From NCBI RefSeq assembly GCF_036323395.1, contig NZ_AP028907.1, positions 1,410,001 to 1,442,000 of the forward strand: a DNA stretch of 32,000 nt. Direction: 5' to 3'. This DNA is from Pyrodictium abyssi. GTDB lineage: Archaea > Thermoproteota > Thermoprotei_A > Sulfolobales > Pyrodictiaceae. This document shows, in pieces, positions 4,256 through 6,323 of the stretch (positions within the stretch are counted from its first letter, which is position 1; every line of letters begins with the position of its first letter). The notes under the pieces are model-generated. The model was not told the DNA's origin, did not search any database, and saw nothing but the letters and a program-made list of their open reading frames with translations. Made by a program: the position numbers and the translations under genes.

Positions 4256-4624
4256 CTAGGCCTCAGCAGCAACCGTTTTGCCCAGGTACAGTAGCCGGCC
4301 ACGACGGCTATCAATGTAGTAGCGCAGCACAGGCTTGCCCACAGCTCTGAGGGGCCTTGGCTTAGCTGAGTCCGCTTCTACTTCTACTAGCTCGTCTACC
4401 GCGTAGGGCATCTCAGCCTCATCTAGCCCTACGCACTCGAGCCCAGCTAGGACTGGGCAGAGCCGGCGGCTCCACCAGCCGCGGGGAGCCGCCACTAGCT
4501 CGTAGCCGCGCGTGTAGGCTATGGCCCTCGCGAGCTCGCCTACTAGGCCTAGGGCACGGCTCGGGGATGCTATGTGCTTGGGACTGGGTAGTAGAAGCCC
4601 GAGCCCGCTACGCTGGAACGTCAA
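4256..4624 (-). CDS. Hypothetical protein (122 aa)
   Basis: ORF with a TTG start and a TATA-like GTTTATAC about 45 nt upstream on the minus strand (4665..4675). No recognisable motif. Confidence 0.4.
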   Translation of the reverse strand: MTFQRSGLGLLLPSPKHIASPSRALGLVGELARAIAYTRGYELVAAPRGWWSRRLCPVLAGLECVGLDEAEMPYAVDELVEVEADSAKPRPLRAVGKPVLRYYIDSRRGRLLYLGKTVAAEA

Positions 4625-4800
4625 GGCTTGCAGCCCTCATACAAGAGTAGCCCCACTCTTGGCCCAGTATAAACCTTTAGGCCCACCAGCCTCCCACTGC
4701 TACACGGGCCCGACAACTACAAAAGAACCCTGCAAAGCGCTGTGCTAGACAATGGAGGGGCAGCCGGGTCGTCTAGCGGCCAAGGATGCGGGGCTTTGGA

Positions 4801-4824
4801 TAGCGGCCCTCTACCCCCTACCCC
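4801..4824 (+). repeat. 5' arm of the 24-bp intron-terminal inverted repeat (TAGCGGCCCTCTACCCCCTACCCC)
   Basis: It pairs position by position with 5520..5497, giving 23 Watson-Crick pairs and one U.G pair at 4810:5511. Confidence 0.9.
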
Positions 4825-4830
4825 GCTTTC

Positions 4831-5428
4831 CTACCTCGTGCTGCTCCTAGCCCGTCTTGCCATCTCGCTAGCCACCTTGTAGGAGCCGCCCAGCAAGTCT
4901 AGCCTGTTGAAGATAAACACTCGATACTTGCCTCCATGAAGATAGTAGTTGCAGCTGGCCCCTATCAGGCTACAAACACTCACCACGAGACTTGCTATCT
5001 TCTTTGAGGCTGTAGTTATGGCTACGCGGAAATAACCGCCACGCCTCCGCTCAATGTTTCCATCAGAGTCTATAAGCCCTTCAACGACGCCTATTAGGGC
5101 CTCTAGAGGGACTCCCTCTACGCCTTCCTCAAGAACCCTTGAGATAAACCTAGTCAGCGAGAACACTAGGCATTTACCACACACTGATACGACTACCTCG
5201 CCACCCTGCATAAACACGTTAGCATTGAATCCGAGGGATGCAATCACGTAAACAAGCTCCTTCAAGATCTCCGGACTCGTGAGGCCCGAGAAAAAGCCTT
5301 ATCCGGTAGTCATAACGCTTTCTATCTATATAGATACTGCCGTCGCCTAGACAGAACCCTGCAAGGTAGCCCCATTTACGCCAACCAACTCTACTAGTTA
5401 GCTCCTCGTAGTCACCACGACACTGCAT
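4831..5428 (-). pseudogene. Two-motif (single-chain) LAGLIDADG homing endonuclease, antisense to the tRNA, interrupted by a +1 frameshift
   Basis: The N-terminal frame starts at ATG 5428 and reads [46 protein letters not shown] (motif 1). The C-terminal frame is open from 5298 and ends at stop 4831; it contains ...EALIGVVEGLIDSDGNIERRRGGYFRVAI... (motif 2). The frames join at a T5 run (plus-strand A5 at 5291..5295). Deleting one T gives a protein of about 198 aa, close to I-DmoI in size. Confidence 0.8.
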
Positions 5429-5456
5429 AGGTCCCGAGGAATCGTGTAGAGAACGG

Positions 5457-5471
5457 TAATAATACAAATAA
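5457..5471. promoter_or_regulatory. AT-rich TATA-like block (TAATAATACAAATAA), candidate bidirectional promoter inside the intron
   Basis: This is the only strongly AT-rich block in the intron. Its centre (about 5464) is about 36 nt upstream of the HEG ATG (5428) on the minus strand. It is also about 33 nt upstream of the 3' helix arm (5497) on the plus strand. Confidence 0.45.
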
Positions 5472-5496
5472 GCTCCCCAGAGGGAACACGAGGTAT

Positions 5497-5520
5497 GGGG
5501 TAGGGGGTAGGGGGCCGCTA
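5497..5520 (+). repeat. 3' arm of the 24-bp intron-terminal inverted repeat (GGGGTAGGGGGTAGGGGGCCGCTA)
   Basis: Reverse complement of 4801..4824 except for one G.U position. It lies immediately 5' of the BHB central helix. Confidence 0.9.
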
Positions 5521-5558
5521 GAAGAGCCCCCGTGACCGGGGTTCGAATCCCCGCCCGG

Positions 5559-6323
5559 CTACCATCTCCCTCCAACCCGGCTAGCTCTGCCCCCCTCTAG
5601 CTCCTCTATGAGCGACCCCACTCCGTCTAGCGTGTACTCGCTGGGGTAGAGGGCTTCGGGGTAGCCTAGCTCCTTTAGCTTCTTAGCCGTGGTCGGGCCT
5701 ATGGCTACTGGCTTGAAGCCCGGGCTGCCTGGGCTCGGGTAGTGCTTGGTGAAGGCCTCGGCTATGCTGGGGCTCGTGAACACCACGTAGTCGAACATGT
5801 CGGCTATCCTCGCAGCCGCTGAGGCCATCCGGTCTAGGACAACGACCCGGTATAGAGGGATCTCCACGGCCTCTATTCCGTGGCTCTCTAGGCCGCGTAC
5901 TAGGTCTGGCACAGCCTTCTCGGAGCGGGGTAGCAGGACGCGGCGCGGGCGCAGAGATGCTAGCTCTTCTGCCAGTGCTGCGCCACGGTATTCCCTCGGC
6001 ACGTAGTCCGTGCGGACTCCGTGCTGCTCAAGCACCTGGCGGGTCTTGGGCCCGACCGCTGCTACCCGGATCCTTCCCTGCGTCTGTAACACGCGTATCT
6101 TCTCGAGCAAGCTGGCTAGGAGCCTGGGGGCACGGGGACTCGTGAATACTACCCAGTCGCTCTTCTCGAGTTCTTTCTCCACTTTCTCGGCTGCCCCGGG
6201 TACTGGCTCTACATCGATCACGGGGATGTGGGCTACTACCGCTATCTCGGCGAGCCGGCCGGGCTCTGAGCCGGGCGGGCGTAGGAGGAGGACGTGGGGC
6301 CGCCTGTCTAGCTTAGGCGCCAA
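5559..6323 (-). CDS. hemD: Uroporphyrinogen-III synthase
   Basis: The C-terminal 254 aa of the 397-aa track ORF look like HemD: two repeated half-domains with VVFTSP motifs ([10 protein letters not shown] and [13 protein letters not shown]) and [16 protein letters not shown]. The upstream part of the track ORF is an out-of-frame shadow of cobA. The start is placed at in-frame TTG 6323, just before HVLLLRPPG, and is uncertain. Confidence 0.75.

Follow-up and report, generated by a model that had tools for sequence, protein, structure and literature searches.

Archaeal tRNA introns have been reported to range from 11 to 129 nt (Chan et al. 2011, PMC3218864), and homing endonucleases go unmentioned in a review of tRNA introns from 2014 (PMC4090602). 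Endonuclease-bearing introns with a bulge-helix-bulge (BHB) splice motif are known instead from archaeal rRNA genes (I-DmoI / I-PorI / I-ApeI type; PMC4496867, PMC6125680). Among tRNA genes, the "cis-split" tRNA-Asp of Aeropyrum pernix has a "121-nt intron", an hBHBh' motif and a 14-bp G/C stem beside the BHB. Its internal sense promoter is predicted to start transcription 20-25 nt before the intron's 3' terminus, and northern blots show two halves (PMC3218864). Here, we describe a 32,000-nt stretch of the Pyrodictium abyssi genome (contig NZ_AP028907.1, positions 1,410,001 to 1,442,000; hereafter the window) in which a 25-bp G+C-rich helix clamps the ends of an intron in the gene for tRNA-Gln(UUG). 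This helix constitutes the h' stalk of a canonical BHB intron of 727 nt. As a structural device, such a stalk is an expected feature of large BHB introns and of split tRNAs; the setting is less usual. Coordinates refer to the window and its plus strand unless stated otherwise, and the genomes, contigs, loci and families used for comparison carry our own handles (G, C, L and f numbers).

The tRNA-Gln(UUG) gene occupies 4762-5564 (+), with both exons inside one 803-nt stretch of a single strand. The 5' exon (4762..4799; tRNA positions 1-37, with the anticodon UUG at 4796-4798) is 95-100% identical to the intron-less and short-intron tRNA-Gln genes of 40 relatives, and the 3' exon (5527..5564; positions 38-76) ends in an encoded CCA (5562-5564). 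The canonical (37/38) intron between them spans 4800..5526, as judged from the recovered hBHBh' fold and from the exact lack of these bases at the corresponding locus of two congeners (G002 and G001). All parts of the motif are present: two 3-nt bulges on opposite strands, a 4-bp helix between them, and flanking helices h and h'. In sequence and folds, helix h is the anticodon stem (4789-4793 paired with 5528-5532) and the central helix H joins CUUU (C32-U35, 4794-4797) to GAAG (5521-5524), with one U.G pair. The 5' bulge, GG|A (4798..4800), places the predicted cut at 4799|4800, from the BHB geometry and from the alignment with intron-less congeners, which breaks at 4799. On the 3' strand, helix H and the second bulge together cover 5521..5527; this bulge, AG|C (5525-5527), places the other predicted cut at 5526|5527, where the alignment to the empty site picks up again (5526/5527). 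The predicted splice sites restore an intact tRNA and agree with intron-less alleles; that of G024 reads ...CTTTGG|CCCCCG.... About 30 nt upstream of position 1 lies a promoter-like box (4719..4732, +; ACAAAAGAACCCTG), which scores 7.6 and ranks in the top 0.06% of genome positions under a position weight matrix (PWM) trained on the upstream regions of the other tRNA genes of the same genome. The genome holds only one UUG and one CUG tRNA-Gln gene; since the UUG gene is single, splicing of its precursor should be essential.

Separated by 672 nt, the segments 4801-4824 and 5497-5520 are complementary at 24 of 24 positions. The 23 Watson-Crick pairs and single U.G pair claimed in an earlier note on this DNA were recounted exactly, the U.G pair being U4810.G5511, and a repeat finder agrees. 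A 25th pair, G4825.U5496, lengthens the helix to 25 bp, giving a C-rich 5' arm (4801..4825, +) and a G-rich 3' arm (5496..5520, +). The note had also set the helix directly beside the BHB bulge, and so it stands: A4800 is the third base of the 5' bulge and the arm runs from 4801, while the 3' arm ends at A5520 and is followed by GAAG (5521-5524), the 3' bulge (A5525 G5526 | C5527) and the anticodon-stem strand. The longest ungapped helix of Watson-Crick and G.U pairs within 4500-5800 measures 25 bp, compared with 13.0 +/- 1.4 bp (maximum 20) in 300 dinucleotide-preserving shuffles of the same interval. The minimum free energy fold of the whole 801-nt precursor likewise recovers the helix (z = -6.9). 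Elsewhere in the 2.22-Mb genome, the arm sequence has no match at three or fewer mismatches.

Among 41 relatives, the intron is present in this genome only, being absent from the three other genomes of the genus. Two of these congeners, G002 (84% identity) and G001 (73%), match the window collinearly over more than 2 kb to either side of the intron; the aligned stretch stops at 4799 and continues from 5526/5527, with exactly 727 nt missing and no duplication. We searched for the endonuclease encoded in the intron (described below) in 351 genomes of the class and then in species-representative genomes and metagenomes. These searches retrieved 17 further distinct homologous endonuclease introns, 654-1182 nt in length, from other Desulfurococcales-type genomes and metagenomes. 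All 17 sit at position 37/38 of tRNA-Gln (UUG or CUG), and in all 18 distinct introns, the one in the window included, the endonuclease gene runs antisense to the tRNA. About ten introns of the family hold an open frame of at least 184 codons, and the frame is broken in the remainder. The carriers are labelled as Desulfurococcales metagenome-assembled genomes, "Candidatus Calypsonella navitae" and Thermodiscus sp. Patchy among close relatives and with homologues in distant hosts, the intron is, on this distribution, evidently a mobile insertion.

Smaller tRNA-Gln introns accompany the family. One genome (G038:C4, ~229141-229372; L007) has a tRNA-Gln(UUG) gene with a 155-nt, AT-rich intron that lacks an open reading frame (ORF), keeps a 16-bp stalk and has a TTAAATA box ~30 nt ahead of the 3' arm; this intron may have arisen by deletion from the endonuclease intron. 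In related genera, tRNA-Gln introns of only 20-33 nt (L005 in G009, L011 in G008 and L006 in G025) have at both their start and their end the same outer stalk bases as the window intron (GCGGCC...GGCCGC). The endonuclease intron could descend from such short introns, or they could be what deletion has left of it, although the similarity is very short. A separate peculiarity concerns the anticodon loop, which reads CCTTGG in several tRNA-Gln genes (L020 and L021 in G010 and G016, L009 in G035, and L071) and CTTTGG in others; with anticodon UUG, the former would put C at position 33 in place of the near-universal U.

Every intron of the family, whether its gene is intact or not, has a stalk of 16-33 bp adjoining the BHB motif. 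Summed over the 17 further introns, the stalks comprise 360 Watson-Crick and 11 G.U pairs (5 of the latter internal), no A.C mismatch and a few bulges of 1-3 nt, and the arm sequences diverge widely between genomes. For the ten introns that share an ungapped register counted from the bulge, pairing holds in all 160 stalk cells, and compensatory double changes appear at 13 of 16 positions. When the partner strand is slid by 1-3 nt, pairing falls to 40-58% and compensatory positions to 0-3. Arms that were not conserved or did not covary in orthologous loci had been named in advance as the outcome that would speak against a functional helix; across the homologous introns they are conserved and do covary. 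Introns with a broken endonuclease gene retain stalks of 21-30 bp. That stalks are kept beside a dead endonuclease gene, and in the ORF-less 155-nt intron, points to host selection for splicing, not to selection on the endonuclease. Taken with the shuffled controls, the sequence comparisons identify the helix as genuine, far outside chance expectation and selected as an RNA helix.

Between the arms lies a double-LAGLIDADG homing-endonuclease gene (4831..5428, minus strand), antisense to the tRNA and interrupted by one +1 frame change, as delineated from ORFs, Pfam matches and the read-through protein P0001. That protein scores above the Pfam thresholds, with 35.2 bits for LAGLIDADG_3 (threshold 22.5) and 25.7 bits for Hom_end (threshold 21.1), as do the intact homologues in G132 and G249. 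Homologues with 32-60% identity occupy the same intron position in other genomes, and the nearest of them (60% identity) sits in another family. Homology places the frame change at ~5270-5275 (minus-strand TCC-G-GAG) and not in the A5/T5 run at 5291-5295, because the first frame matches the closest homologues through FLGPHES (FLGSHES in G104). A sequence search of the Protein Data Bank (PDB) with the endonuclease profile found no relative of solved structure at E <= 0.01. Distant homologues (at most 35% identity; inteins or free-standing genes) have no G+C-rich flanking helix. On the minus strand, the endonuclease ATG follows 28 nt after the sole AT-rich block of the intron (TAATAATACAAATAA, 5457..5471); on the plus strand, the 3' arm comes 24 nt after this block. 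Its sequence and position mark the block as the probable TATA box for the endonuclease, and the family members examined have an equivalent TATA-like box ~20-32 nt from the 3' arm. In base composition, the intron (52% G+C) stands between the genome (59%) and all other family members (31-43%); drift towards host composition or a G+C-rich donor could account for this value. The 12-nt sequence AGAACCCTGCAA is found once in the region of the tRNA promoter (4724-4735) and again, identical and in direct orientation, inside the intron (5353-5364), where its minus strand encodes LAGF of the first LAGLIDADG motif. The repeat is probably a coincidence, with a chance expectation of ~0.05 matches in 1.3 kb.

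How long such a stalk must be was addressed by partition-function folding of the full 801-nt precursor at 75-95 C, with the stalk shortened in silico. Stalks of at least 16 bp formed with a probability of 0.90 or more, 12 bp gave 0.68-0.82, 8 bp at most 0.09 and 5 bp ~0; removing the stalk lowered the anticodon-stem probability more than 10-fold. Turner parameters extrapolated to 95 C are crude, and proteins, polyamines and modifications are ignored, so that the model suggests, within these limits, that closing a loop of ~670 nt at 75-95 C takes ~12-16 bp or more. This threshold fits the 16-bp lower bound of the natural stalks. The earlier proposals that the helix exceeds what the splicing endonuclease motif needs, and that it would hold the splice sites together across ~670 nt at high temperature, both gain from the model: the length is about that required to close such a loop, and the modelling suggests that the clamp is needed.

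We consider it likely that the helix is the h' stalk of a mobile BHB intron that invaded the sole tRNA-Gln(UUG) gene and is spliced in cis from a single precursor. The tRNA gene would be transcribed as one precursor of ~800 nt, in which the 25-bp G+C-rich stalk would zip the intron ends together across a 670-nt loop that is an antisense copy of the endonuclease gene. In doing so, the stalk would set the two 3-base bulges 4 bp apart, allowing the splicing endonuclease to cut at 4799|4800 and 5526|5527. A ligase, expected to be RtcB, would then join the tRNA-Gln exons, and the stalk would probably also permit ligation of the intron ends into a circle. With the tRNA present in single copy, the host would keep selecting the stalk after the endonuclease had decayed.

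The earlier note likened the helix to the leader/trailer pairing of split tRNAs, and this analogy is borne out, on genomic sequence, for the very same tRNA: the duplexes are of the same kind and of comparable length, with 14 bp in the tRNA-Asp of A. pernix and 13-19 bp in f11, a sister family within the same order. None of the eight f11 genomes, which span five genera, has a contiguous tRNA-Gln gene; all eight have only trans-split halves joined at 37/38. The separate 5' halves (UUG and CUG) and 3' halves lie kilobases to ~900 kb apart or on different contigs, each with an AT-rich promoter-like box. A C/U-rich trailer and a G/A-rich leader provide 13-19 paired bases beside the BHB motif, and the duplex covaries between genera. 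In G034 (contig C1), a single 3' half (1009046-1009088, L116) serves both 5' halves (963090-963128, L117; 102120-102158, L118); further halves are found in G207-G213 (L120-L144). Beside the f11 halves, the search for endonuclease remnants gave only spurious weak matches, one of them inside a dehydrogenase gene. Homology between f11 trailers and endonuclease-intron arms is not supported either, the similarity lying within what composition gives (P = 0.03-0.7, before multiple-test correction). A literature search found no paper describing a split tRNA-Gln in this group, although the searched literature is incomplete.

Given these trans-split relatives, the same duplex might be thought to join two transcripts at our locus as well. 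The AT-rich block at 5457-5471 would then fire on both strands, a separate 3' half would start at ~5494-5497 and the 3' arm would be its leader, as in the tRNA-Asp of A. pernix, where a sense promoter and a 14-bp G/C stem go with two halves (PMC3218864). The TATA-like box does lie 24 nt before the 3' arm (~20-32 nt in the family members examined), its sense reading CAAATAAGCTCCCC resembles the tRNA promoters of the genome, and f11 encodes this very tRNA in true trans halves, broken at the same site. The sense box (5465-5478), however, scores only 6.2 (top 0.15% of genome positions). Chance alone should yield ~2-3 matches of this strength over the 900 nt scanned, and the intron contains several sense matches that score higher, so that a strong internal sense promoter is not indicated. 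The AT-rich box is also at a suitable distance (28 nt) from the antisense endonuclease ATG. Moreover, no sense-strand run of five or more T, as a terminator for a 5' half, occurs in the intron (4800-5526), and the halves are not at separate loci or in separate transcription units in this window. With a contiguous gene, no such T run and an unexceptional internal promoter match, contiguous cis splicing appears to be the simplest, default reading in this genome. The earlier note saw the helix as equally able to serve in cis or in trans; we judge trans joining of two transcripts here unlikely, though a minor 3' half with a start of its own may exist.

Two further explanations would place the purpose of the arms elsewhere. 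Excised archaeal BHB introns are commonly circularised, and the stalk might mainly serve the excised intron, making it a highly stable circle of RNA that is antisense to the endonuclease mRNA and could dampen endonuclease expression. It would suit such a role that the loop in its entirety reads as the endonuclease ORF in reverse complement and that a stalk ending at both cut sites would hold the ends for ligation, but stalks are equally long where the endonuclease is dead, and one persists in the ORF-less 155-nt intron (L007, 16 bp). An antisense-regulator role thus leaves their retention unexplained, whereas a host need for splicing explains it; we regard the circular-RNA role as highly unlikely. 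A near-perfect 24-bp inverted repeat around ~670 bp also has the anatomy of a miniature inverted-repeat transposable element (MITE) or insertion sequence (IS), and the arms might be the terminal inverted repeats of a DNA transposon or MITE that landed in the tRNA gene. Here, though, the arms are single copy and unique in the genome, the empty site in congeners lacks a target-site duplication, the element begins and ends at the BHB cut sites, and what it carries is a LAGLIDADG endonuclease in place of a transposase. The arms differ between genomes with complementarity kept, G.U pairs being tolerated and A.C absent, and the element is found only in tRNA-Gln at 37/38. Since neither further copies nor a target-site duplication nor a transposase accompanies the arms, the MITE or IS reading was rejected, and we consider this origin extremely improbable.

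Several points weigh against a cis-spliced intron held by a selected RNA stalk. RNAalifold, applied to 12 full introns aligned with MAFFT, finds the BHB core but no more of the stalk than its first two pairs; this shortfall arises because indels are placed differently in the two arms, which is why the register-from-bulge count was used instead. An inverted repeat kept at the DNA level would also seem to "covary", and the asymmetry between G.U and A.C that favours selection on the sense RNA amounts to only 5 versus 0 internal cases. In the folding model, the central helix CUUU/GAAG has a low probability (0.013-0.026 at 75-95 C) even with the full stalk. Finally, the folding of the RNA in the cell, its cleavage, its circularisation and the importance of stalk length at the growth temperature are things that we infer.

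The locus also bears on genome annotation. Neither default ARAGORN nor Rfam (gathering and E-value modes) found a tRNA at the tRNA-Gln(UUG) locus. With its intron option, ARAGORN finds 4762-5564 but labels it tRNA-Leu(taa) with a 724-nt intron; the same option labels the CUG tRNA-Gln (G000:C1:174378-174476) as "Pyl(cta)". Both mislabels arise because the program misplaces the intron boundary. Its other long-intron calls in the genome (Ser, Thr, Trp, Met and Arg) have no end helix and are likely false positives. With default ARAGORN and the Rfam tRNA model missing the gene, annotation pipelines may list such genomes as lacking tRNA-Gln(UUG). Downstream, the convergent hemD gene (Pfam HEM4, E = 3e-46) has a stop codon that overlaps the tRNA discriminator base and CCA end (5559-5564).

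This locus and its 17 relatives present tRNA introns of 650-1180 nt that would be kept spliceable by a long, covarying clamp, which would explain how a tRNA gene tolerates a selfish gene in its anticodon loop at ~90 C or above. The full-text literature searched yielded no report of a LAGLIDADG gene inside an archaeal tRNA intron; coverage was incomplete, and we refrain from calling the arrangement never described. A single archaeal order displays the same tRNA in every state: some genes lack an intron, others have a short one, a stalked one free of any ORF or one encoding an endonuclease, and yet others are trans-split. This series opens the origin of tRNA introns and split tRNAs to comparative and biochemical tests. 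That the stalk of endonuclease-bearing tRNA-Gln introns was the evolutionary precursor of split-tRNA leader/trailer duplexes is a possible but doubtful extension. If it were true, invasion would install a clamp of at least 16 bp able to hold the splice sites over any distance, together with an AT-rich promoter box ~20-30 nt from the 3' arm. Deletion of the ORF (as in the 155-nt intron of G038) or rearrangement of the intron (as in f11) would then leave a working tRNA. The endonuclease intron would also put a name to the "agent specific for these tRNA sequences" left open by Chan et al. 2011, and the locus would be a natural intermediate for comparing cis and trans splicing.

Set against described split tRNAs, the window shares with those of Nanoarchaeum equitans and Caldivirga maquilingensis a hyperthermophilic host and a G+C-rich complementary extension adjoining the BHB (PMC3218864, PMC4033280). 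Their halves, however, lie at separate loci with their own promoters, whereas the arms in the window belong to one transcription unit. The A. pernix tRNA-Asp has several features in common with the locus in the window: it likewise comes from the Desulfurococcales, is broken at 37/38 and combines an hBHBh' motif with a G/C-rich stem (14 bp there, 25 here), and in both cases an AT-rich promoter-like box lies 20-30 nt before the 3' arm. There, the promoter is on the tRNA strand and the halves are separate transcripts; in the window, the gene is contiguous, the 727-nt spacer encodes an endonuclease and a sense promoter is unsupported. The tRNA-Gln of f11 agrees with ours in the tRNA itself, the 37/38 junction, the BHB motif and the duplex adjoining the bulges; it also has a TATA-like box ~10-35 nt upstream of the leader, a broadly comparable spacing. 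It differs in its far-apart halves, in the 3' half shared in G034 and in having no endonuclease remnant beside the halves. In length, the duplex in the window exceeds both the A. pernix tRNA-Asp stem (14 bp) and the f11 duplexes (13-19 paired bases).

The rRNA introns resemble the window intron more fully. They too have a BHB at the base of a long G+C-rich stalk with a LAGLIDADG gene in a loop of ~600-700 nt; close relatives likewise differ in whether they have the intron, and the endonuclease gene likewise decays. Long stalks are a feature of published archaeal rRNA introns also, a likeness that the earlier note leaves out. The rRNA genes of this genome are themselves intron-less; in G037, the 23S rRNA gene (G037:C16:31200-35000; L113) has an intron of ~635 nt with a double-LAGLIDADG gene on the sense strand and a stalk of ~15 bp (6+5+4 bp) at the splice site. 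The host gene sets the two apart, rRNA versus tRNA, as does the ORF, which is antisense in the window and sense in the G037 23S intron. The stalks of the window and its family (16-33 bp) are longer than that of G037 (~15 bp), and the stalk in the window is uninterrupted. Measured against the one such intron from G037, the large endonuclease-bearing BHB intron of rRNA is a closer comparator for this locus than the split tRNA.

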